Source: an uncultured Chitinophagales bacterium
GTDB taxonomy: Bacteria > Bacteroidota > Bacteroidia > Chitinophagales > CAZNGA01
NCBI GenBank assembly: GCA_964572485.1
Contig: CAZNGA010000003.1
Span: 9,591-73,590, forward strand
DNA: 64,000 nucleotides
Direction: 5' to 3'
Of this stretch, positions 4,189 to 53,432 are shown one piece after another. The position numbers were made by a program, and so were the translations under genes. The notes beneath the pieces are model-generated. The model searched no databases. It worked only from the letters and a program-made list of their open reading frames with translations, and was not told where the DNA came from. Numbering within the stretch: position 1 is the first letter of the stretch; each line of letters opens with the position of its first letter.

Positions 4189-5031
4189 TTGAATAAGAAT
4201 TGTTTGTATTGGTTCGGTGTATTTTTCCTATTACTTGGATGCGGGAAAGACCCTTATATTAATATTGAGAACCCATCTACCAAAGATGGATGGGGATTGA
4301 TTTTCCAAGAAGAATTTGATACTAATTCAATTGATAAGCAATTATGGGGTGATAACTCATGGAGTAGAAGCATCGTTGGCAACAAGGAACTACAATACTA
4401 TACAAGCCCTTTAGATGGTGACAATTATCAAATTAAAAATGGGATCATTAAACTTATTGCCTTAAAGAAAAATATTACTAGCAGAGTTGTTGATCATTGG
4501 GCAGATGACAAGATCATTTACGACGGATATCCCAACAAAAGATTCTTTACTTATTCTTCGGGGAAATTAGAAACTAGTATCGAGTTTTTGTATGGCTATT
4601 TTGAGATTAAATGTAAAATTCCAAAAGGAAAAGGTTTGTGGCCGGCATTTTGGTTAATTGCAACTAATACCAGTGATTATAAGGAAATAGATATATTTGA
4701 ATTTCATTGTGATGAACCAAATGTGCTTCATATGACAAACCACTATTTAGATGGTAATGGAGAAAAAAGAATAAAAGCAAAACACATAAAAGGGCCCGAT
4801 TTTTCTAAGAATTTTCATACAATTGGTATAGAATGGGATAGCAGAAAAATAGTGTGGTATTTTGATAACATGAGAATTTTTACTTCTCGCAAAGAAATAC
4901 CTCACGTTGGGCTTAGAATGATAGTAAATTTAGCTGTTGGTGGAGAATGGCCAGGACACCCTAATAATGACACCCAATTTCCGGCTGCTTTAGAAGTTGA
5001 TTACATAAGAGTATTTCAAAAATTATACTAA
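4189..5031 (+). CDS. glycoside hydrolase family 16 lipoprotein (beta-glucanase/laminarinase-like)
   Basis: Lipobox FFLLLGCGK. GH16 catalytic signature EIDIFE within YKEIDIFEFH. A TTG start is the only in-frame start giving the signal peptide. Confidence 0.8.
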   Translation: MNKNCLYWFGVFFLLLGCGKDPYINIENPSTKDGWGLIFQEEFDTNSIDKQLWGDNSWSRSIVGNKELQYYTSPLDGDNYQIKNGIIKLIALKKNITSRVVDHWADDKIIYDGYPNKRFFTYSSGKLETSIEFLYGYFEIKCKIPKGKGLWPAFWLIATNTSDYKEIDIFEFHCDEPNVLHMTNHYLDGNGEKRIKAKHIKGPDFSKNFHTIGIEWDSRKIVWYFDNMRIFTSRKEIPHVGLRMIVNLAVGGEWPGHPNNDTQFPAALEVDYIRVFQKLY

Positions 5032-14307: not shown

Positions 14308-17300
14308 TTATCGAATTAGTTTTATCCAACCGGTCCAGGTACGCTCATCATCACAGATGTACACATAGTAATAAGTATCACTCTCTAATAATTTACCATT
14401 CAAATCCTTCCCTGCCCAGTCATTCTGATAATCATTGGCTTCATACACCTTAGTTCCCCATCTATTAAATACAACTAATCTGCAGTTTGCAAAGTCGGTA
14501 CCATCAATGATAAAGAAATCATTCTTACCATCATTATTTGGTGTAAAGGCATTAGGAATACTAAAGTCCTCACAAACCTCAATACTTACTTGGGTACTAT
14601 TGGTACAAGAACTGCCACCATAAGTATGAACTACAGTGAATTCAATGGTATATCTCACCGGATAATTTGAATCTGCTCTTGCATACGTGTGTAAGTGTGG
14701 CCCAACGACATCTATAGCAGGTAGTGTTCCGTCACCAAAATCCCATTGCCACGAAGTGACATTAGGTTCAACCGTAGCATATTCAACGGTTACATCTAAA
14801 GGATAACACTTACCCACAATATATGATGGTTCTTCAAAGACAGGCACCGGATTTGGAAGTACATTCACTGTTATAAATGCAGTATCCATACAGCCTGTAG
14901 CGATATCTTCTCCAATGAGTATAAATAGTGTTGTATCTGATGGATCAACAGAAATGGTATCTAATGGAGGAGTTGTAGTTGTGATCAAGCTATCAAGTCC
15001 GGAGGACAGTCTTGCATAAAAATGATAAGTCACATTACCTGTGGCTCGCAATGTAATGGTTCCTCCTGCACAAATAGCACTATCGCTTGAAGCAATAGTA
15101 ACTCCTGGTCTTGGATTAATTGTAAGTGAAACAGTACTTGTATCATTTCCGCACAAAGTAGTAGTGGCTATCATTGAGAAAACGACAGTACCAGCGTCAC
15201 TAGTTGTGGAATAATAAGTAGGTGTAGCGGTTGTGCTATCCTGCAAAACGCCTGTTCCATTATGGGTCCAATACACTAAGTTCCCTGTAAAAGAGCCTGC
15301 AAGGGTAACACTTTGCCCTTGGCATATGGCTGATGGAGAAGCGCCTGCATTGGCTAACGGTAATGGCATTACGACAACAGTCACTGAATCCATCACAGGA
15401 ACGCATGCACTTCCTGAGGCACTTGCAGTAAGCGTTAATGTAACGGTTTGTGGCGTCGTGATGCCCGTACATAAAATATAACCAGGTGTCAAAATCGTGT
15501 TACTCGGTGTAAAGGTTCCACCTGCACCACCATCTGACCATGCAAAAGTATTAGAAGCTGTAACTGCTGAATACAAAGCAACGGTATCGCACTCACAAAC
15601 CGTATCAGGAGGGAAGGGAGCTGTAAGAGATATGGAATCAATGAGTGGTAATGAATCTACAGTTACATAGGCGGTATCAACATCAAATCCGCACATACCG
15701 AAAGTATCAGTTACCGTTATTGTCAACATCAACACTACTCCGGCAGAATCAATATGAGGCGTATAAGTAGGATCTTCAATAATTGTGCTTGAAAAAGCAC
15801 CATTTCCACCATTGTCAGACCATAATATACTTCCTCCTGAAGCTGTACCATTCAGATTGACGAAAGTCGATTGGCAGGTATCCACATCAGGGCCTGCATT
15901 AGCTGAAGGCGTTATTACCGCAACATTGATAGGAACGGTATCCCTACATTGGCCGGCAAAGCCTATAGCTTGGAATGTAGTATTCACTGTTGGTGTCACC
16001 TCAATAGAATCGCAAAATGGAGGAGTCAGGCAATTGATACCGGCTGCGGGGATAGAGCTCCATGAGTATATAGCAGCTCCGGTAGCAGTAATCGTATCCA
16101 TTTGACCTCCACAAATGGTATCACGTGTTACCGTCAAGGTAACGATACCCGAGTCAACTCTAAATGGGTATGTCAGGGTATCAGGACATCCTCGAAGACT
16201 ATCAAATACAGCTACATCAAAAGTATAGAAACCACTGGTATGCACAGTATCAAACGCTGCACTAATACACCTATTGGTCAATGGAGTTGTGATCATTGTA
16301 TCAAATGGCGCCGAAGTCAAGCTCCAATCATAGGAAGTGCTTAGACTGGTTCCGGTAACGCAAATGGTAGTTGTATCCGGTAGATCAGGTGCACAAAATC
16401 CCGAATCGGTAGCACTCAGAGAAAACGGGATGAACAAATTAAGAAAATCGCACACGGTATCATCACAATTCAATACAGTATCCGTTACGATAAGACAGAA
16501 TGTCGTTGTATCACTAGCCAGAGCCCATGTTGAGTCTGCAGTAACACTATCGATAAAGACAACAGGATTAGAAAACCATAGATAAGAAAGGTCATTACCG
16601 GTACTTCCTTTACCATTAAGAATAATGGTATCTAAAACTCCGCCAAAACAAATCGAATCTGATGCAGCAGGTACTGAAATTGGTGGTGTTTTAGCCAATA
16701 CAGAGATGATCGTATCTTTAAAACATAAAGTAAGGGTATCTGTAACTCTTAGGGTAAATACATCAGAGAGGCAAGCTACAGCTGTTGTAACCAAAGAATC
16801 AGGTTCAGCAATACTATTACCACCTGTACTAGTCCATAAATAAGCTACTCCTACACTATCGCTACCTGTTCCATCCAAAGCTACTGTTTCGCAAACGCAA
16901 GTAGAATCCAAATCCGCTGCCTCAGCATTTGGATTCGGATACCAATCTACTACAAATGTGTCTACTTCCACACAACCACTTCGTGTTGCAACCATAATAT
17001 AAGTAGTTGTGTCCACCGGGGTATGTGTAATAAATGGCGTAGTATCGATCGCAAAAGTATCAGGAGGAGTTAATTGTGCGATAGCGATCCATGTATAACT
17101 TACATTTACAATATCACATCCGTCCGATAAGGTAACAGAGTTCCCGTCACAAACACCTGTATCAGATGCAGTGAAGCATATAGCAACTGCACTATCAAAT
17201 TGGAAAAGCAGATCAGCGGTATCAATACATCCTGTGGCACCATCTGTCACTTCCACTGAAAACTCAAATATAGAGTCCAGTAATTGTGCTGCAGGTAGTC

Positions 17301-19392: not shown

Positions 19393-19650
19393 TTTTTATA
19401 ATTTTAATAGGCTCACAATTATCAAAAATTAATAATATAGTTCATTTTTCCCTACTCATTTACCTAGCAGGTAATATGCTAATGTAATACAATGCAATAG
19501 TAAAATAAAAAGATAATTCGTATTCAGTCACTTACAATTAGTATTTGGTGCATTTTACAAGGAATTTGGTATATAGGATTCCTTAACAAAACATGAGTAT
19601 TTACTAAATAATCGTTCGAATAGCATCATTCAAGTAGAGGTATCAGGGCA

Positions 19651-20397: not shown

Positions 20398-20522
20398 GGA
20401 AAGGTTTTTATTTGAAGTTAACTTACTCAATGGACCCTACTAATTTATACATTATTCTCATACAATAGAAATCGAATTCGTATTTGGTGTACAGCAATTA
20501 GCAAACGGTACGTTACACATAG

Positions 20523-20581
20523 GATTTGGTGATTTGGGATCGGGTGATTGGAAGATTTGTGGATTGGAGATTTGGAGATTG
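20523..20581. repeat. eight head-to-tail 7-8 nt GATTKGR units
   Basis: The tract reads GATTTGGT GATTTGG GATCGGGT GATTGGAA GATTTGTG GATTGGA GATTTGGA GATTG. It lies in the divergent spacer between the LytTR response regulator and the CRTAC1-like gene. Confidence 0.75.
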
Positions 20582-26872: not shown

Positions 26873-26965
26873 AGTAATTACGTATGATTACCCTTAAAAG
26901 ACATATTTATTTGATAGAGATGGCTTATTAGCGGATAAGTGATCTAAAAATGGTGTTGAATGGGC
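26873..26965. promoter_or_regulatory. three-box upstream module of A1 (degenerate box1, 21/39 spacing)
   Basis: TTACGTATG core ending at 26886, a 21-nt gap, TATTTGAT (26908-26915), a 39-nt gap, then GTTGAATGGGC (26955-26965). Confidence 0.45.
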
Positions 26966-27171
26966 TATTTTAACCGATTAATGAGGTAAAATCGGTGATT
27001 CACAGCTATATAGGTTTTCTGCTCAATTTCGCAGGGTAAGATCAGTGTCTTTTAACCTTAAGCTTAAAGAAGTCGCAAAGTTCATTGGTTTAATCAATAG
27101 GGGTCTATAATGAATCATATCTGGATGCTAAGGTACTTAATCGACTGTGGCAATTACATCAGTTATAAAAA

Positions 27172-31225: not shown

Positions 31226-31318
31226 CTTACATACGTAAGGGACCAGTAACAATTCGATTTAATTTGACCAAACCTATGTACATCAAGTTAAGTGAACTTT
31301 ATTTAGGGATGAATGGAC
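31226..31318. promoter_or_regulatory. three-box upstream module of A2 (21/39 spacing)
   Basis: CTTACATACGTAAG (31226-31239), a 21-nt gap, AATTTGAC (31261-31268), a 39-nt gap, then GATGAATGGAC (31308-31318). Confidence 0.55.
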
Positions 31319-31564
31319 AAAAAAGTAAGATTAAACGGCCGAAACCTATACGATTGGCTATACCAAGACTTTACAATCCAACCTGGATATTCTGCTATAT
31401 CTATTAAGTCGATTCAAAGGGCTTAGATCAGCCACAATAAGTACCATTTACATAGGTAAGGATGATCTAGTTTTCCAATGATCTATCGATGCATGGATAC
31501 AATATAAGATCAGGTGTGACTTGGGAAATAAGTTGTGTTAGAGGGTAGTCATTGAAAGGAACAT

Positions 31565-35397: not shown

Positions 35398-35469
35398 CTT
35401 ACATACGCGAACATTCCGGATAAATCCGAGTAAATTTGACGGAAGTGGTGGTAATTTCGATGAATGGAC
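35398..35469. promoter_or_regulatory. three-box upstream module of A3 (21/18 spacing)
   Basis: CTTACATACGCGAA (35398-35411, right half degenerate), a 21-nt gap, AATTTGAC (35433-35440), an 18-nt gap, then GATGAATGGAC (35459-35469). TAAATTTG at 35431-35438 matches TAnnTTTG on the plus strand. Confidence 0.55.
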
Positions 35470-35767
35470 CTATTCCTATGGTTAATAGCCTATAAGGTTG
35501 GATAAGGCACTTAAGCTCAATGACTGCAAGGTATTAAGGCAGTACATCATCACTTCAATACTCTTATACATAATAGGTAAGCACAGGGGAAGGGCCTACT
35601 AATGATCACTTCGGATCTGATACACAAGATAAATATCGCGGACTAAATTAGAAGTAGGTGTATTTGTAATATTTGAAACTTAGGGTAAGTACAATACAAA
35701 AAAATGCCCACATCGATTCACCTTCAGGTAGGATGCAGACATTTAAAGTTTTAATATGCTTTGTAGG

Positions 35768-38447: not shown

Positions 38448-38519
38448 CTTACTTACGTAAGTTTGTCTGCATAATCTGAGAAATTTTGACCGATGTAATG
38501 GAATATTCGACGAATGGAC
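38448..38519. promoter_or_regulatory. three-box upstream module of B1 (21/18 spacing)
   Basis: CTTACTTACGTAAG (38448-38461, containing the perfect 12-bp palindrome ACTTACGTAAGT), a 21-nt gap, ATTTTGAC (38483-38490), an 18-nt gap, then GACGAATGGAC (38509-38519). Confidence 0.6.
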
Positions 38520-38658
38520 CTATTATGGTGTTGAATAACTTTGTAGAATAGATAAGCTGCCTAATAGACAATAGAACTTTGAGTATGCAAATACATTTAT
38601 AGGGTCAGGAACCATTGGGGTATATTATCAAGGGGTAAAGTTACTGCCAACAATACAA

Positions 38659-38916
38659 CTACTGCTTAGCATAGGATGAAAAGGAAGAGGAGCTGCTTAC
38701 AACCACAATCTTTTGTTTATATAGCTGTTGATCGCTGGCTCCAATAACGAAATAGATACCAGGGTTTAAAGTATTGCCAATATCCTTGAATTTACAATTC
38801 ACCACTCTTTGGAATGGGGAGGCCGGGATCCGGGATATTGAAAATTGCCCATAAAATTCAACGTGCATTAAGGTTCCTGTATTTCTTGTCAGAGGATTAG
38901 CTACTGTGAATAGCAT
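38659..38916 (-). pseudogene. CTD-only relic of a family paralog
   Basis: The 85-aa ORF holds only a degenerate T9SS CTD: ANPLTRNTGTLMHVEF...NPGIYFVIGASDQQLYKQKIVVVSSSSSFSSYAKQ. The Ser-rich ...AKQ tail matches B1. No signal peptide or passenger domain. Confidence 0.6.
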
Positions 38917-41776: not shown

Positions 41777-41790
41777 GTTACCCGTGTAAG
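41777..41790. promoter_or_regulatory. box1 palindrome upstream of paralog C (proximal copy)
   Basis: GTTAC-CCGT-GTAAG, 46 nt upstream of the ATG at 41730. A degenerate copy, CTGTC-ATAA-GTAAG, lies at 41859-41872. Confidence 0.45.
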
Positions 41791-41915
41791 TTTTTGTTTG
41801 TTTTCTGATAGCAATATATATCTTATCGCTTCTAAATAAAAGCCATTTGCTTCAGGACACTGTCATAAGTAAGATTTACAGTTATTTCTGGTAATCAATG
41901 AAGAAATGAAGGGTT

Positions 41916-41929
41916 ACTTACAGGTGTAA
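41916..41929. promoter_or_regulatory. box1 palindrome upstream of paralog C (distal copy)
   Basis: CTTAC-AGGT-GTAAG with perfect half-sites. Confidence 0.45.
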
Positions 41930-41993
41930 GAAATAACAGCTTTTGGTTTATTCTCTTAATAGATCATTACAGCAAAATGAATAGAATTGCAGT

Positions 41994-44651: not shown

Positions 44652-44714
44652 CAAATATATATCTTGACATGAGGTGATACAAACCATGTTAAAATGGTTG
44701 CTTTCCCGTGTAAG
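44652..44714 (-). promoter_or_regulatory. candidate B2 promoter: box1 plus TAnnTTTG box
   Basis: Box1 CTTTC-CCGT-GTAAG (44701-44714). On the minus strand, TATATTTG (44659-44652) lies 41 nt below it and about 48 nt upstream of the ATG at 44604. A TTTG sits 20 nt upstream of the -7 box. Confidence 0.5.
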
Positions 44715-47469: not shown

Positions 47470-47532
47470 CAAAAATAAAACATTAGTCAAGTGAAAGCAA
47501 TCAGATTTGCACTACAATCTTTCGCATGTAAG
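47470..47532 (-). promoter_or_regulatory. candidate B3 promoter: box1 plus TAnnTTTG box
   Basis: Box1 CTTTC-GCAT-GTAAG (47519-47532). On the minus strand, TATTTTTG (47477-47470) lies 41 nt below it, the same spacing as at B2. A TTG sits 20 nt upstream of the -7 box. Confidence 0.5.
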
Positions 47533-47656: not shown

Positions 47657-48019
47657 TTACAATAAGTTAAGTCGTTGCATTAAGCTTTTCCTATAAGATT
47701 TGCTGATCGGAATGGGCTTTTTATCCAATATAAGGATCTTTCCCTGTATGGCAGCGATCTTATCAATACGGATGATGTATGATCTGTGTACCCTGATAAA
47801 ATCTTCAGCAGGGAGCTTACCTTCAATACCTTTCATGGTAGAATGAACGGTGTAATTTTCATGCTCAGTTTGAATGATCACATAATCACCATACGCTTTG
47901 ATCCACAGGATATCTTCAGGATAGATCTTTAAAAGGCGTGCAGCCGCTTTCAGAAATATGTGGTTGCTCTGAAAAGTGGTTTGTTTACTAGGCTGATTCA
48001 AGTTGTTGCTTTGGAACAT
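47657..48019 (-). CDS. stand-alone LytTR-domain DNA-binding protein (no receiver domain), copy 1
   Basis: 120 aa. DILWIKAYGDYVIIQTEHENYTVHSTMKGIEGKLPAEDFIRVHRSYIIRIDKI is a complete LytTR domain preceded by only about 30 aa. Confidence 0.85.
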   Translation of the reverse strand: MFQSNNLNQPSKQTTFQSNHIFLKAAARLLKIYPEDILWIKAYGDYVIIQTEHENYTVHSTMKGIEGKLPAEDFIRVHRSYIIRIDKIAAIQGKILILDKKPIPISKSYRKSLMQRLNLL

Positions 48020-48071
48020 ATTTTCATGGTTTTGATGAGGTCAATATATAATACGCAGCGGAAGCTCTTTT

Positions 48072-48109
48072 GTTACAATAGTTACGGGCTTTGTCATACG
48101 TTTGTCATA
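48072..48109. promoter_or_regulatory. repeat cluster upstream of LytTR copy 1
   Basis: GTTAC-AATA-GTTAC (48072-48085, direct half-sites), then TTTGTCATA twice with 11-bp phasing (48090-48098 and 48101-48109). The cluster lies 53-90 nt upstream of the ATG at 48019. Confidence 0.35.
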
Positions 48110-48155: not shown

Positions 48156-48524
48156 CTAATCCATTCTTTTCATTAGTTCTTTCCTGAAGGAATCACTTAC
48201 CGGTATCAGCTTCTTTCCTACCTCCAGAGTCTTATTATTTATCGCATTTATTTTATCAATGGCCACAATATATGATCTGTGTACTCTTATAAATTTAGCC
48301 TCAGGAAGCATCTCTTCAATTTCCTTCATTGTTGCATGTACTGTATGTCTATCTTGAAAAGTTTTAATACTGACGTATGAGCCAAAGGCCTCCACACAAA
48401 GGATAGCATCAAGCAGTATCTTGAGGATGGGCGCCTTCTCTTTCACGAAAAGTGGTTTACTTGGTGGTACTCTCTTTCTCATATTGCTATCTTGGTTTTC
48501 AAAGCCGTCAATATTTCTGATCAT
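48156..48524 (-). CDS. stand-alone LytTR-domain DNA-binding protein, copy 2
   Basis: 122 aa. AILCVEAFGSYVSIKTFQDRHTVHATMKEIEEMLPEAKFIRVHRSYIVAIDKI. Confidence 0.85.
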   Translation of the reverse strand: MIRNIDGFENQDSNMRKRVPPSKPLFVKEKAPILKILLDAILCVEAFGSYVSIKTFQDRHTVHATMKEIEEMLPEAKFIRVHRSYIVAIDKINAINNKTLEVGKKLIPVSDSFRKELMKRMD

Positions 48525-48556: not shown

Positions 48557-48628
48557 AAACTATACGTAAGGTTCCAGGTAAAAGGTGATTAATTTTGATG
48601 GATGCATTGATTAAAAGGACGAATGGGT
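48557..48628. promoter_or_regulatory. three-box module upstream of LytTR copy 2 (21/18 spacing, same as A3 and B1)
   Basis: ATACGTAAG ends at 48570 (the left half-site is degenerate), a 21-nt gap, ATTTTGAT (48592-48599), an 18-nt gap, then GACGAATGGGT (48618-48628). TAATTTTG at 48590-48597 matches TAnnTTTG on the plus strand. Confidence 0.55.
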
Positions 48629-48733
48629 CAATTATTCGGATTAACGAACCATTTAGGTGGTTGACTATCCATTAATTGTGTTGAATTGATGATTCAATGG
48701 ATACGAGTATAGGTACATTCCTTCTTTTTGAAT

Positions 48734-48764: not shown

Positions 48765-49116
48765 TCTCTCTGTGATACTAAAACTAAATTACAATTACTA
48801 AAACTTAAAAATTATGAATATGTCATTGGTTGCTTGATTCTATACATTAAACGAAAAAAAGCAGTAATTGGTTTCATAAATTCGATGAATTGACCTGTTT
48901 ACAGTTAAAATAAAGCACATTATGCCCCCTGCTCAAACAGGGAATATTGATTCAAGTTGATTGATTATGTTGGGAGTATTGGGATTCCTGCTTGTCGACA
49001 GACAGGATTTTATTGATAATTTTTATTGCTCCTGATATTTAAATTATTCGCCTAACCAGCTAATTAATGATCACGATGCACTTTGGCATCGGGATTAATT
49101 CAACTACTAATTTTTA

Positions 49117-49212: not shown

Positions 49213-49557
49213 CTAAAGCAGATTTAAATTTTGCATCAAATTCTCCTTGTACGAATTACTAACAGGGATATATTTTGAGGCAACTTTTAGTGTTTTACCG
49301 TTTACAGAGTTGATCTTATCCAGGGCAACAATAAATGATCTATGTACGCGAATGAAAAATTCGGGGATCAGTTTCTTTTCAATGCCCTTCATTGTTGTGT
49401 GAACAGTATATTTTCTTTCAGGTGTATGGATGATAACATAGTTGCCTAGTGCTTCGATCCATAAAATATCTTCCACATTTATTCTATGAAAATGGGTACT
49501 TGTTTTCACAAAAAAGTTCGCATTTGGCTTCTGCGATATGGTCTGTTTGTTCTTCAT
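49213..49557 (-). CDS. stand-alone LytTR-domain DNA-binding protein, copy 3
   Basis: 114 aa. DILWIEALGNYVIIHTPERKYTVHTTMKGIEKKLIPEFFIRVHRSFIVALDKI. It starts 32 nt downstream of the 165-aa CTD protein gene on the same strand. Confidence 0.85.
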   Translation of the reverse strand: MKNKQTISQKPNANFFVKTSTHFHRINVEDILWIEALGNYVIIHTPERKYTVHTTMKGIEKKLIPEFFIRVHRSFIVALDKINSVNGKTLKVASKYIPVSNSYKENLMQNLNLL

Positions 49558-49589
49558 TATCTTATCTGTTTTAGAGAATTTACTTTCAT

Positions 49590-50087
49590 TTATTTTACGA
49601 TCAATTGTTGTCTTTTTATGCTATCAAAGCTTTTCACTACTATATAATAGGTCCCTGATTCTAATTCAAATCCATAGTTTATATTTTCCACTGTCCCATC
49701 GTTATTGGTAATGAAATCTTTGGAAAATATCACCTTTCCATTTTGATCAAGAAAATTAACCGTGATCTCCTTGACACCTAGCACATTTAGTTGGATGCTT
49801 ATGTTACTGGAAGTCTCAATAGGGTTTGGGAAAATATTAAATGAAAATGCCGGATAAGGTTCAAAACTTTTGACTGTGTTGCTTCGTTCTACTTTTTTAT
49901 TATCCGGTACACTGTAAGGCATACTTTCCACAACCGTAACTGTGGTTATGTTATTATGTTCATCACTCTTTACTTCAGTCGTTTCACTTTGAGCATAAAT
50001 AAAACAGGATATAAGTAAACTAATAGTCAACATGGCCAATCCTTTTGAAGCAAAAGGCGAAAAACGAATATGTTGTATCCTGTTCAT
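49590..50087 (-). CDS. minimal T9SS substrate: signal peptide + short linker + type-A CTD only
   Basis: 165 aa. Signal LAMLTISLLISCFIYAQS, an about 50-aa linker, then the CTD FNIFPNPIETSSNISIQLN...FLDQNGKVIFSKDF...GTYYIVV...RQQLIVK. Confidence 0.8.
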   Translation of the reverse strand: MNRIQHIRFSPFASKGLAMLTISLLISCFIYAQSETTEVKSDEHNNITTVTVVESMPYSVPDNKKVERSNTVKSFEPYPAFSFNIFPNPIETSSNISIQLNVLGVKEITVNFLDQNGKVIFSKDFITNNDGTVENINYGFELESGTYYIVVKSFDSIKRQQLIVK

Positions 50088-50160
50088 TCTATAAAGTTCT
50101 TTTAACTTATTGCAAATTACTTAATGCGAATTCCTTGGACAAACCATTACAAGGCATGCG

Positions 50161-50174
50161 GTTACACATGTAAG
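50161..50174. promoter_or_regulatory. box1 palindrome upstream of the 165-aa CTD gene / LytTR copy 3 pair
   Basis: GTTAC-ACAT-GTAAG followed by ATTTTGAGG, 73 nt upstream of the ATG at 50087. A near -7 box, GTAATTTG, lies on the minus strand at 50120-50113 (40-nt gap). Confidence 0.45.
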
Positions 50175-50242: not shown

Positions 50243-52936
50243 TTAATGTGGCATGAAGACGATCTTTCTTGTTGTTTTATGATCCCCTGCTAAAAGGGAC
50301 ACAAAATAGATCCCCCTGGCTATAAAAGGTTCAGGCTGCCAAGTGATCATATGAAATCCAGCACCTTTGGTAAATGGTGTAAAATCCTTAACTAACCTTC
50401 CTGAGATATCGTAGATCTGAATACCAATCTCTCTCTCCTCATGAAGTGCAATTTCAAAGGTTACACCATTTGAAAAGCTTGGATTTGGATATATGCTAAC
50501 CGCCAAAGAAGAAGGTAATACCTCCGGGTCCGGCTCAAAATAACCTAACGAATCGATACTTGATGTCTTCCACAATCCACCGGAAACACTACCAGCCCAT
50601 ACCGTATTGCCTGTAGCATCATTTGGGTCAACCATAATAGTACGGGTTCTGCCTCCAATATTTGAAGGGCCTCTTTCTTCCCAAATGATACTATTATCAC
50701 TCTGAATCCTACCTACATACAAACCCCTTCCATGTGTTGCTGCAAGTATTGAGTGATCTGACTTTCTTATCCTCAACATATCTGTCCTTACATAAGCCAA
50801 GCCCTGATTTGCAGGCAGCCAGATAGTACTATCACCATCCAAATTATTAGTATAGAATACGCCTATCTCTGTGGCAATATAACATACCCCGGCCTTTAAG
50901 GGATGGAGCAGTGCCCATCTAACCGGAATATCAGGCAGATCACCCTCTACAGAATGCCAGGTAGGTGATGGATCTGCCGCATCCTTACTCTCAAATATCG
51001 ACGGGGCTCCGTAGTTTGAGTATACCACAATTACGTGCCCTCCATCTTGCGGATCAACATAAATGCACGATGCGAAAAAATCCGGCTCTCCCATATTAGC
51101 TTGAGGAAGCCTGTCTGCAGGATCTGTATTTTCAGGTCTGTAGGATGATGTTGTCAAATGGGCATCAACTACTCTAAATACTTTTCCGGATGAGCTTTGT
51201 CGTCCAAAGTATAATATATTTGCAGGATTTTGACTAATCCCTATCGCTGATACCGTTCCCCATGCTTTTGTAGCCTGTTCCCAATCGGAATCATCAGCTG
51301 CTGAAGCATTCTTGAGACGCCATATCCCATTATTACTTGCCTGGTAGATTATATCTGGATCAATCGGATCCATTTCCATGGGATTGATAAATAATGTATT
51401 TCCTCCACTGCTGCTTGAGCCACCCTTCAAATACGGATTTGTGATCGCATCATATCCACCTGATCCTCCATTTACAAACCTATACATCCGTAAATATTGT
51501 GTTGTGGTATACATGATATTACCGTCGTTATAATTAATGGCACAAAAAGCGCCGTCAGCACCGGATAATTTTTGGAAATCACTTTTCCCAGAACTAATGG
51601 CTATTCCCGATCCATTATCCTGCGTCCCTCCAATCACAATGTGACTACCTGCATCAGGATGAATGGCCCCGGCATAATACTGTGTAACATTGTAGGTGGC
51701 ATTTCGATTTGTGATCATAGGTGTGTCATCTCTAAAGTTGCTGCATTTCCATATACCACCATCATTACCAAAAAAGACGGTATCTGAATTCAAAAAAGTG
51801 ACCTCATGTTGATCCACATGCACATACCCCGCTGAATCGGATTTACTATGAGTGATCTTTCGCCAATTAATGCCCCCATCTATACTTCTCCAAAAATGCA
51901 ACCCACCAGCCACCAGAACATCTTCGTTGTTCGGATCCACCTTCAAGATCAGATCATACCACCCCTGCTTTTTTGAGAATTTGGTACTATCACCCCCTGG
52001 AATATTTACCTTGAACCATGTACTTCCTTTATCCTCGGTTTTGTAAAATCCCATGATATAATAATTCTGAGACACATCACTTATTGCAGTGGCATAAGCC
52101 ACATTTTCATTGGAAGGCGCTGTGGCAAGTTCAATCCGATAAATATTATTGGCCGGGAATCCGTTGGTTTGTTCAACCCATGTACCTGTATCCCCAGTTG
52201 CTGAGAAGTAAATCCCATCGGTATTAAACATACCTATGGTTGCAAAGATCTCTCCAGATGCAGTATATTCTATGTCTGCTATCCGATCATGTACAGCTCC
52301 ATTTCCCGCTCCCAGAACCTGCTCCCATGTGAGGCCATTATCCTTTGAACGCATTAGCCCACCATCCCTTGTTGCCACATAGATATCACCTGTTGTTGGG
52401 TGTACAAACATATCCTGACACTGAAAGAAAATGCTACTGTCTGTAGCAGGAAGCTGGCTCCAAGTATCACCTCCATCCGCCGACTTCCACACACCGGCCC
52501 CTCTCACAGCATCTGCATTGAACCACCCTTCTCCAGTACAGAAATAGAAATTATTGGTATTATTCGGATCATAAACTAGCCGGGTAATACTTAAGGATGG
52601 GAAAAAATCATTGATGGTTGACCATCTTATATCCTTTTTCATGGGAGATGAATGACCGCTTAATGTTAATTTACCAGCAGCTTCCAATTTCTTTAGCGCT
52701 TTATAAACTGCTCCCTTGGGTGCTTCACCTGTATAAGGGTTGGCTACTCTGTCCAATTCAAACTGAGCTAATTCACCAGGATACTCAGCAATTGGCCTAT
52801 CTGCTTCCTGACCAATTATATTGCTCAATGGCCTATCATATAGAAATAATGCCAATAATAGGAATATGGCGACCATTAAAGATATGTTTATTAGGGTTCC
52901 TGTTCTCACGCTGCTTGATTTCAATCTAAGTAGCAA
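50243..52936 (-). CDS. BNR/Asp-box beta-propeller protein (sortilin/VPS10- or GH74-like) with type-A T9SS CTD
   Basis: Asp-boxes SADGGDTWSQ, SKDNGLTWEQ, TEDKGSTWFK and SIDGGINWRK. CTD SIYPNPSFSNGVTFEI...GIYFVSL...RKIVF. Confidence 0.85.
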   Translation of the reverse strand: MLLRLKSSSVRTGTLINISLMVAIFLLLALFLYDRPLSNIIGQEADRPIAEYPGELAQFELDRVANPYTGEAPKGAVYKALKKLEAAGKLTLSGHSSPMKKDIRWSTINDFFPSLSITRLVYDPNNTNNFYFCTGEGWFNADAVRGAGVWKSADGGDTWSQLPATDSSIFFQCQDMFVHPTTGDIYVATRDGGLMRSKDNGLTWEQVLGAGNGAVHDRIADIEYTASGEIFATIGMFNTDGIYFSATGDTGTWVEQTNGFPANNIYRIELATAPSNENVAYATAISDVSQNYYIMGFYKTEDKGSTWFKVNIPGGDSTKFSKKQGWYDLILKVDPNNEDVLVAGGLHFWRSIDGGINWRKITHSKSDSAGYVHVDQHEVTFLNSDTVFFGNDGGIWKCSNFRDDTPMITNRNATYNVTQYYAGAIHPDAGSHIVIGGTQDNGSGIAISSGKSDFQKLSGADGAFCAINYNDGNIMYTTTQYLRMYRFVNGGSGGYDAITNPYLKGGSSSSGGNTLFINPMEMDPIDPDIIYQASNNGIWRLKNASAADDSDWEQATKAWGTVSAIGISQNPANILYFGRQSSSGKVFRVVDAHLTTSSYRPENTDPADRLPQANMGEPDFFASCIYVDPQDGGHVIVVYSNYGAPSIFESKDAADPSPTWHSVEGDLPDIPVRWALLHPLKAGVCYIATEIGVFYTNNLDGDSTIWLPANQGLAYVRTDMLRIRKSDHSILAATHGRGLYVGRIQSDNSIIWEERGPSNIGGRTRTIMVDPNDATGNTVWAGSVSGGLWKTSSIDSLGYFEPDPEVLPSSLAVSIYPNPSFSNGVTFEIALHEEREIGIQIYDISGRLVKDFTPFTKGAGFHMITWQPEPFIARGIYFVSLLAGDHKTTRKIVFMPH

Positions 52937-53042: not shown

Positions 53043-53285
53043 TCAGAAGTGGTTATAACAATTGACGATCCCTTTTCCAATTCTATAGAAAATATTGGCA
53101 ACGAAATATATAGGGGCCAGGATGATAGCCAATCCATCGATAATCCTGAATCCAATTCTAAAAATTAAGTATGCCATCATAGTAATTACTTTACGGAAAT
53201 TTTGGAGAGAAGTTACTACAAATATTAGCAGAATCTTACATGCAAATTCCGATATACCTATAGTATTTATAGTGCAAAATTCCAT
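53043..53285 (-). CDS. possible small two-TM membrane protein (uncertain)
   Basis: The 80-aa ORF has two hydrophobic segments, but a competing 67-aa plus-strand ORF overlaps it. No family motif. Confidence 0.25.
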   Translation of the reverse strand: MEFCTINTIGISEFACKILLIFVVTSLQNFRKVITMMAYLIFRIGFRIIDGLAIILAPIYFVANIFYRIGKGIVNCYNHF

Positions 53286-53432
53286 AATTGATAGTTAACA
53301 TGTAATAGGAAGAAATGCCCATTTTTCTTACGTAGATATACGTATCCCACAGAAAATTATGTGTGAATTGTGTTGCGTGAGAGTCATTTACAACAACAAC
53401 AGAAAGGCAAAACAGGAGTGATCAAAGAGACC

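Follow-up and report, generated by a model that had tools for sequence, protein, structure and literature searches.

Phased LytTR-like direct repeats and a second promoter layout upstream of candidate co-regulated T9SS cargo paralogs in an uncultured Chitinophagales bacterium

Among the described systems closest to the one considered here, LytTR regulatory systems of the HdrRM/BrsRM type, AgrA, ComE, and PlnC/D use two imperfect 9-bp direct repeats separated by a 12-bp spacer and placed 4 to 11 bp, in most cases 10 bp, upstream of the −35 region; it is through repeats of this kind that LytTR regulators without a receiver activate the operons that encode them (PMC6193735). Here, we follow up a palindromic 14-mer, CTTAC-N4-GTAAG, in a 64,000-nt stretch of DNA (hereafter the window) from an uncultured Chitinophagales bacterium, a metagenomic lineage with few sequenced relatives (GenBank assembly GCA_964572485.1, contig CAZNGA010000003.1, positions 9,591 to 73,590, forward strand). 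The 14-mer recurs in a block of genes for LytTR proteins and for T9SS (type IX secretion system) cargo proteins that carry its C-terminal domain (CTD), and an earlier note on this DNA had read it as one dyad-symmetric operator through which a single dimeric regulator, possibly a LytTR protein, would control about 10 promoters.

To our knowledge, nearly all that is known of how T9SS cargo genes are regulated concerns PorXY-SigP in Porphyromonas, and the small LytTR-only proteins that are abundant in Bacteroidota genomes are essentially uncharacterised. The explanation that we find best, and hold to be probable with some reserve, is that the block uses two promoter layouts, and that LytTR proteins would activate the T9SS cargo promoters of the first layout (type I) through helically phased repeats. 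The 14-mer, on the other hand, is most likely the point at which two conserved layouts look alike, rather than one operator. Read in this way, type I would be a new form of the direct-repeat promoters that LytTR proteins activate, this one in Bacteroidota. Like the described systems, it has imperfect direct repeats of 9 bp set 12 bp apart, which may also lie a few to about 10 bp upstream of the −35 region; the candidate regulators are receiver-less LytTR proteins, as in the HdrRM/BrsRM type; and such repeats also precede the gene or operon of the candidate regulator itself. Unlike the described promoters, which have two repeats of the ACCnCTTAn type, those here have three to five of the form nCATTCRTC, they belong to a Bacteroidota host and to T9SS CTD cargo paralogs, and their core promoter looks, and probably is, ECF-like (extracytoplasmic function). 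Further, the LytTR-only regulator of the HdrRM type is co-transcribed with a membrane inhibitor, whereas here no such gene is adjacent and the recurrent partner is an upstream T9SS CTD gene.

AlgR of Pseudomonas aeruginosa, a LytTR response regulator with a receiver domain, acts at algD together with the ECF sigma factor AlgU. Its 9-mers (consensus CCGTTCGTC; footprinted variants CCGTTCATC and CCGTTGGTC; PMC4787818) are nearly identical to the strongest type I repeats (CCATTCGTC, CCATTCATC, and CCATTGGTC), and CCATTCGTC differs from the AlgR site at a single base. However, AlgR sites are often single, far upstream, and in either orientation, whereas the repeats here are strictly phased, and the proteins here are LytTR-only and 114 to 122 aa long. 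ECF control of T9SS genes has been described as well (PorXY-SigP in P. gingivalis; motif SM6 in Flavobacterium psychrophilum), and many type I modules, as well as the LytTR-only gene Lyt1, show AAC-N16/17-CGTA. PorX systems concern T9SS machinery genes, a PglZ-domain PorX, and AT-rich sites (PMC8265659), in contrast to the cargo paralogs and LytTR-type repeats here, where, moreover, the window holds no sigma or anti-sigma gene. PorX binding sites were considered as a candidate for the shared element and rejected, the published sites being AT-rich and unrelated (PMC8265659).

Type I and type II promoters in the window

All upstream regions were read on the coding (minus) strand, and all coordinates are collected in Table 1. 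The type I layout is found at five promoters, those of A1, A2, A3, B1, and Lyt2, and consists of three to four imperfect direct 9-mers (consensus nCATTCRTC, more loosely nCATYCRTC; extended form (C)CATTCRTC(G/A)AA) at an exact 21-bp period (9 bp plus a 12-bp spacer, approximately two helical turns), followed by an invariant CGTA exactly 30 nt past the last repeat. Cutting the regions into 21-nt frames exposes the phased 9-mers, with one extra frame in A1 and A2. When the five regions were compared with themselves at 47 shifts, those of 21 and 42 nt scored highest, and not one of 2000 sets of randomly drawn window segments reached the value at 21 nt; with a matrix made from the two strongest repeats, the untrained −21 offset ranked 2nd, 1st, 4th, 2nd, and 6th of 82. 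The pattern RTCAAA-N27-CGTA occurs five times in the window, each time on the coding strand directly upstream of one of these same genes. Likewise, a composite rule (a matrix trained on the window only, two phased 9-mers, a 29- to 31-nt gap, then CGTA) returned five modules in the window, versus 0.25 in shuffles. The shared sequence extends beyond the repeats: ungapped alignment of the spacers gave 110 nt at 66% identity for A3 versus B1 (E 4e-12) and 73 nt for B1 versus Lyt2 (E 4e-6), Lyt2 being unrelated to the A and B genes. Separately, the A2 spacer holds a decayed type I piece (31447-31496, minus strand; CCATGCATCGA then CTTACCTATGTAAA, without CGTA and with shortened spacing), and a lone orphan type I repeat, CAATTCATCGAAT, lies in the Lyt2 spacer (48884-48892, minus strand).

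The second layout (type II) precedes B2, B3, and the operon of a 165-aa CTD gene and Lyt3. Its box, CTTACAYGnGWAAS, starts 31 nt upstream of TTG/TTTG, which is followed by N20 and TAnnTTTG; CTTACA thus starts 55 nt upstream of the −7 box TAnnTTTG, at approximately −67 to −54 of a −33/−7 promoter. The canonical Bacteroidota sigma-A promoter has −33 TTTG and −7 TAnnTTTG (PMC9723704), to which type II adds the conserved CTTACA box 31 nt upstream of the −33, and our literature search returned no description of a CTTACA box at that place. The sigma-A consensus TTG-N17-21-TAnnTTTG is exact at B2 and B3 and a near match at the 165-aa gene, while type I does not fit it; a window-wide scan for the sigma-70 consensus was uninformative (85 versus 75 expected). 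No second CTTACA copy phased at 21 bp was found in the type II promoters, where autocorrelation was weak, with 22 as the top shift. A reading of CTTACA as a sigma-70-like −35 was rejected, by eye, as no consistent −10 lies 17 nt downstream. Gene C has three CTTAC boxes that resemble type II, with no canonical −7 box at the type II distance.

The 14-mer takes part in both layouts. Exact CTTACNNNNGTAAG occurs at three sites (31226, 38448, and 41917), versus none in 100 dinucleotide-preserving shuffles, and with up to one mismatch there are nine matches in the window (1.49 ± 1.13 expected; nine reached by no shuffle). Eight matches at this threshold fall in the block spacers (3,528 nt, 26.8-50.3 kb; 0.10 expected, at most 2 in 1000 shuffles) and none in the remaining window spacers (2,099 nt), and these counts show that the 14-mer is really enriched and block-specific. 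The proposal that the motif marks a regulatory code common to the T9SS-cargo/LytTR block is supported. All the strong sites reported earlier are present in the sequence, one of them a single base away from where it had been placed (41917-41930 instead of 41916-41929). The degenerate sites reported for A3, A1, and Lyt2 proved to be real members of the larger module, but their dyad is incomplete: A3 has the right arm only, Lyt2 the left arm only, and A1 neither. Two further matches had been missed, one at 14682, inside the 1694-aa gene, and one at 31447, a second, decayed copy in the A2 spacer.

These same data bear on the model of a single dyad operator bound by one dimeric regulator and co-regulating about 10 promoters, which we now consider improbable. 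It accounts for the three exact sites where none is expected, for eight matches against 0.1 in the block spacers, for the perfect dyads at A2, B1, and one C site, and for the right arm of the type II-like window boxes, which in five out of five is within one mismatch of GTAAG. Yet the 14-mer merges two architectures in which it holds incompatible positions, the −10 region in type I versus about −67 in type II, and A3, Lyt2, and A1, with one arm or neither, still keep the whole upstream module. Known LytTR sites are, moreover, direct and not inverted repeats (PMC6193735). The earlier note had compared TACGTAAG to LytTR half-sites, but the LytTR-like element lies instead further upstream, in the nCATTCRTC direct-repeat array with its 21-bp period, which that note had missed. 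We thus read the type I palindrome, CTTA-CGTA-WGTAAG, as most likely CGTA plus lineage-specific flanks, a by-product of the core promoter, and as a caution that an apparent palindrome can arise accidentally from a core-promoter element.

The palindrome might also act in RNA, as a hairpin of the 5' untranslated region with a 5-bp stem and a 4-nt loop. Such a hairpin does form when the A2, B1, and C sites are folded to minimum free energy, but its stability is not significant (z-scores −2.1 to +0.2), it is absent at A3 and B2, other organisms lose one arm with no compensatory changes, and no Rfam family reached threshold in the window, so that we regard a hairpin as highly improbable.

Modules in other organisms

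Homologues of B2 and of the LytTR-only proteins were retrieved and their contigs fetched, the loci being labelled with L-numbers. A word-based search with Lyt2 alone returned only itself and one relative, and hence a profile of five LytTR proteins was needed; similarly, a scan of the genome collection with the Lyt2 protein gave one distant locus only (L002, 38% identity). Applied to 76 kb of foreign loci from uncultured Bacteroidota, the composite rule found eight modules where 0.36 were expected (maximum 3 in 200 shuffles), all in the sense orientation and upstream of CTD-protein or LytTR genes, and two further modules (L022a and L031) were recognized by eye. Across the 15 tabulated modules, the repeat has the form nnnTTCRTC, the period is always 21, and CGTA lies 29 to 31 nt from the last repeat, with three to four copies per module in the window and two to five in the other loci, while the inter-repeat sequence is unrelated across organisms of 37-50% G+C. 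In foreign modules with a recognisable AAC −35, AAC starts 10 to 11 nt past the last repeat; the window modules are without a clear −35.

This conservation also decides on the view that the shared sequences are mere leftovers of recent promoter and paralog duplication, with no regulatory meaning. A1-A3 and B1-B3 are indeed paralog families, the window modules are approximately 66% identical with the inter-repeat spacers included, and a decayed copy remains at 31447-31496. Nevertheless, the module also stands before the unrelated LytTR gene Lyt2; B1 has type I, although B2 and B3, the paralogs closer to it, have type II; and the repeats, the 21-bp period, the 29- to 31-nt gap, and CGTA are kept in organisms of 37-50% G+C in which the sequence between repeats is unrelated. 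Because of the cross-organism conservation and the module at Lyt2, pure duplication remnants are in effect excluded, and we assign this view a very low probability.

The type II layout recurs as well. CTTACA-N48-50-TAnnTTT[GA] was found six times in 263 kb (0.57 expected), in all cases in the sense orientation and upstream of genes, in three organisms, and a seventh, near match precedes the LytTR-only gene of L030. Outside the window, the right arm GTAAG is absent from these promoters, while the left arm CTTACA stands at the same distance. For the 14-mer with up to one mismatch, by comparison, three occurrences in 172 kb of related loci are at chance level, and the palindrome arms are not kept. 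Homologous foreign promoters thus retain CGTA or CTTACA at a fixed distance and not the second arm, which is further evidence against the single-operator model.

Some homologous loci are arranged differently. The Chryseotalea LytTR-only gene (L033) has no clear module, and the promoters of the homologues in L023, L024, and L025 show other motifs, neither type I nor type II. In L023 (~980-1050) and L025 (~4370-4440), the promoters of B-family homologues have in common a direct repeat, GAATCYGGAT, with a 22- to 23-nt period; other B-family members appear wired to other regulators. In a collection-wide pattern scan, for which the window's own contig is not in the collection, only L013/L019 and L018 look genuine. 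Two termite-gut-type metagenome contigs (L019, 755-4252; L018, 3167-4160) show the layout CCATTCGTC-N12-nnTTTYGTC-N30-CG-TAnnTTTG before a three-gene operon of paralogous lipoproteins without a Pfam match, and also before a gene for a YDG-domain adhesin.

Candidate regulators and core promoter

The gene calls made earlier are correct: the block encodes Por_Secre_tail (T9SS CTD) proteins, namely A1-A3 (three proteins of ~1,260-1,310 aa with PKD_6, G8, and Por_Secre_tail domains), B1-B3 and C (~710-880 aa), and the 165-aa protein, and the LytTR proteins are three LytTR-only proteins (Lyt1, Lyt2, and Lyt3) and one response regulator of 259 aa with receiver and LytTR domains. These four are the sole DNA-binding proteins encoded in the window, and the suggestion that LytTR proteins regulate the block names the best candidates. 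Since a module stands before the Lyt2 gene itself, Lyt2 is the leading candidate for binding the type I repeats. There are three independent contexts in which a LytTR gene or operon follows a type I module, i.e., Lyt2 in the window, an L028 operon (a 298-aa CTD gene, then P0166), and an L031 operon (a 434-aa CTD gene, then P0084); Lyt2 and P0166 are the closest pair among the LytTR proteins compared, and the gene order Lyt2-type, Lyt1-type, adhesin gene is common to the window and L028. From this association, we infer that LytTR proteins bind the type I repeats.

A recurrent gene pair was observed in at least three organisms, in which a small or medium T9SS CTD gene is followed 19 to 53 nt later by a LytTR-only gene (window 49213-50087; L027 1-989; L028 4420-5715; L031 2570-4253; and L032). 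In the window, the 165-aa CTD gene and Lyt3 are likely co-transcribed since they are 32 nt apart.

A second and cleaner family of 21-bp-phased repeats, ACCAAATWC in three copies, stands upstream of the gene for the receiver-LytTR protein and of its neighbour, the 1694-aa CHU_C T9SS gene, with a 70-nt alignment between the two spacers (E 1e-5). This family probably marks the response regulator's own regulon, and, as a second 21-bp-phased set, it makes LytTR-style sites a theme of the region.

AAC-N16/17-CGT is the classical signature of ECF sigma factors. The form AAC-N16/17-CGTA is present in six unforced foreign modules (L022b, L022c, L026, L028_6672, and two in L030), in the pattern-selected L013, and at Lyt1, where the same GTAACAAAA-N12-CGTAT lies upstream of Lyt1 and of its 76%-identical orthologue in L028. 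In F. psychrophilum, the putative ECF promoters in front of T9SS genes are recognised by a −10 box with CGT (PMC9723704). We therefore take CGTA as the putative −10-region element of an activator-dependent promoter, which is more likely ECF-type than sigma-A. A type I core read by the housekeeping sigma-A, with TAWGTAAG as a degenerate −7 and the LytTR array compensating for the missing −33, seems unlikely, though some observations favour it: a canonical or near-canonical −7 box follows CG directly in three foreign modules (CG-TATCTTTG in L013, CG-TATTTTTG in L018, and CG-TATAATTTG in L022a), and a TTG/−33 element occurs in no module, as expected for activator-dependent promoters. However, the invariant CG before TA is outside the sigma-A consensus, TAWGTAAG fits just 4 of the 6 specified positions of TAnnTTTG, and both the AAC 16 to 17 nt upstream of CGTA in many modules and the CGT signature at T9SS genes of F. 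psychrophilum (PMC9723704) suit an ECF-type factor better.

In the mechanism that we propose, receiver-less LytTR proteins, most likely Lyt2, would bind the phased repeats on one helix face and recruit RNA polymerase to a weak, activator-dependent CGTA promoter. This would turn on the T9SS cargo paralogs that resemble adhesins and also the gene of the regulator itself, with positive feedback. The sigma factor would probably be ECF-type, as AAC-N16/17-CGTA in relatives and at Lyt1 suggests, the alternative being a non-canonical sigma-A −7 box. Type II would use one box only, WWWCTTACAYR, which is essentially not a palindrome and sits near −67 of a canonical Bacteroidota sigma-A promoter (TTG-N20-TAnnTTTG), i.e., at the position of a class-I activator, and its binder may be another LytTR paralog.

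Several observations weigh against this picture of LytTR-activated type I promoters. First, the three exact palindromes exceed chance and A2 and B1 carry both arms, such that a further operator overlapping the −10 may exist at A2 and B1 in this lineage. Second, the window modules, approximately 66% identical over 70 to 110 nt, point to recent common ancestry and are not five independent observations. Third, the five window modules carry GAAT, GGAT, or AGAT, without AAC. Fourth, no membrane-protein open reading frame (ORF) adjoining Lyt1, Lyt2, or Lyt3 was found, unlike in characterised LytTR regulatory systems. Fifth, the collection-wide scan with the exact composite pattern gave 18 matches, approximately the chance number and mostly in coding sequence. 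Finally, the transcription start sites are placed from spacing and start codons only.

The phased nCATTCRTC repeats, N30, and CGTA form a conserved and easily scanned cis-code. If LytTR proteins do act in this way, the code links LytTR-only proteins to adhesin-like cargo paralogs, delimits concrete regulons, and provides a rule to predict co-regulated secreted proteins in metagenome-assembled genomes. A bolder version, possible in our view though hardly probable, is that uncultured Bacteroidota have a dedicated surface-adhesin circuit that combines LytTR arrays of three to five repeats with an ECF-type sigma factor, CTTACA being the site of a second LytTR paralog. In that case, the arrays would be bound cooperatively by receiver-less LytTR proteins, whose genes typically follow that of a small T9SS-secreted CTD protein in one transcript, and these proteins would fire the promoters of a giant T9SS adhesin multigene family and of their own genes, yielding a bistable, feedback-driven switch that chooses the displayed surface adhesins, with two interlocked sub-regulons.

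Table 1 Promoter elements and LytTR-only genes of the window (all on the minus strand; positions as in the window)
Feature	Coordinates	Sequence elements	Remarks
A1 type I module	26873..26984	9-mers TCATTAATC 26984-26976, CCATTCAAC 26963-26955, TCACTTATC 26942-26934, ATCTCTATC 26921-26913; AAA+N27 after last 9-mer, then CGTA 26882-26879	Degenerate box of the earlier note at 26873-26886
A2 type I module	31226..31337	9-mers CGTTTAATC 31337-31329, CCATTCATC 31316-31308, TCACTTAAC 31295-31287, GGTTTGGTC 31274-31266; N30, then CGTA 31235-31232	CGTA within exact palindrome CTTACGTATGTAAG 31239-31226
A3 type I module	35398..35488	9-mers CTATTAACC 35488-35480, CCATTCATC 35467-35459, ACTTCCGTC 35446-35438; N30, then CGTA 35407-35404	Right arm only, TTCGCGTATGTAAG
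B1 type I module	38448..38538	9-mers TTATTCAAC 38538-38530, CCATTCGTC 38517-38509, ACATCGGTC 38496-38488; N30, then CGTA 38457-38454	CGTA within CTTACGTAAGTAAG 38461-38448, the site on which the earlier note centred
Lyt2 type I module	48557..48647	9-mers TCGTTAATC 48647-48639, CCATTCGTC 48626-48618, GCATCCATC 48605-48597; N30, then CGTA 48566-48563	Left arm only, CTTACGTATAGTTT; candidate autoregulatory site
B2 type II promoter	44652..44714	Box CTTACACGGGAAAG 44714-44701; −33 TTTG 44683-44680; N20; −7 TATATTTG 44659-44652	
B3 type II promoter	47470..47532	Box CTTACATGCGAAAG 47532-47519; −33 (A)TTG 47501-47498; N20; −7 TATTTTTG 47477-47470	
165-aa CTD/Lyt3 operon type II promoter	50113..50174	Box CTTACATGTGTAAC 50174-50161; −33 TTTG 50143-50140; −7-like GTAATTTG 50120-50113	
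Gene C, three CTTAC boxes	41777..41930	CTTACACCTGTAAG 41930-41917; degenerate box 41872-41859; CTTACACGGGTAAC 41790-41777	CTTACACCTGTAAG is an exact palindrome
Lyt1 promoter-like element	48051..48085	GTAAC-TATT-GTAAC-N16-CGTAT = AAC-N16-CGTA	ECF-sigma-like core
Second repeat family	19520-19570	ACCAAATTC/ACCAAATAC/ACTGAATAC	Upstream of 1694-aa CHU_C T9SS gene
Second repeat family	20480-20530	ACCAAATCC/ACCGTTTGC/ACCAAATAC	Upstream of receiver+LytTR response-regulator gene
Lyt1 gene	47657..48019		LytTR-only, 120 aa, candidate regulator; PF04397, E 2e-23
Lyt2 gene	48156..48524		LytTR-only, 122 aa; best candidate binder of type I repeats
Lyt3 gene	49213..49557		LytTR-only, 114 aa; 32 nt downstream of 165-aa CTD gene

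Start codons and further observations

The type I 14-mer lies 23 to 44 nt from the predicted start codons (about 33 to 54 nt from the C of CGTA). At A3 and A1, well-supported signal-peptide starts (a well-supported ATG in the case of A3) are 23 and 39 nt from the box, so close that a type II arrangement would not fit. For B1, A2, and C, the start codon has probably been predicted too far upstream, as their signal peptides begin at M37, M29, and MKRF, respectively (predicted/corrected starts 38404/38296, 31181/31097, and 41814/41730), and this correction changes the box-to-start distances.

Upstream of Lyt1, two copies of TATGACAAA, 11 nt apart, precede GTAAC-N16-CGTAT (48051-48109, minus strand) and are unlike the type I repeats. 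An ORF of 85 aa at 38659-38916 finds a match in no more than the final ~26 residues of a T9SS C-terminal domain (46% to the 298-aa protein of L028) and looks like the remnant of a CTD gene. The 897-aa Sortilin/CTD ORF at 50243-52936 corresponds to two called genes (290 and 565 aa) in L001 (3430-6065), a 99.8%-identical metagenome contig in which the stretch differs in length by 4 nt from that of the window, indicating a frameshift or a strain difference. Finally, the 80-aa ORF at 53043-53344 is probably real but shorter, a conserved small membrane protein of ~44-49 aa; it shares 49% identity with an ORF of 49 aa in L030 (3450-3757), which is syntenic, and upstream of each stand ACGTAA(A)AGAAA(A)ATG and a second box, TACGTAT.

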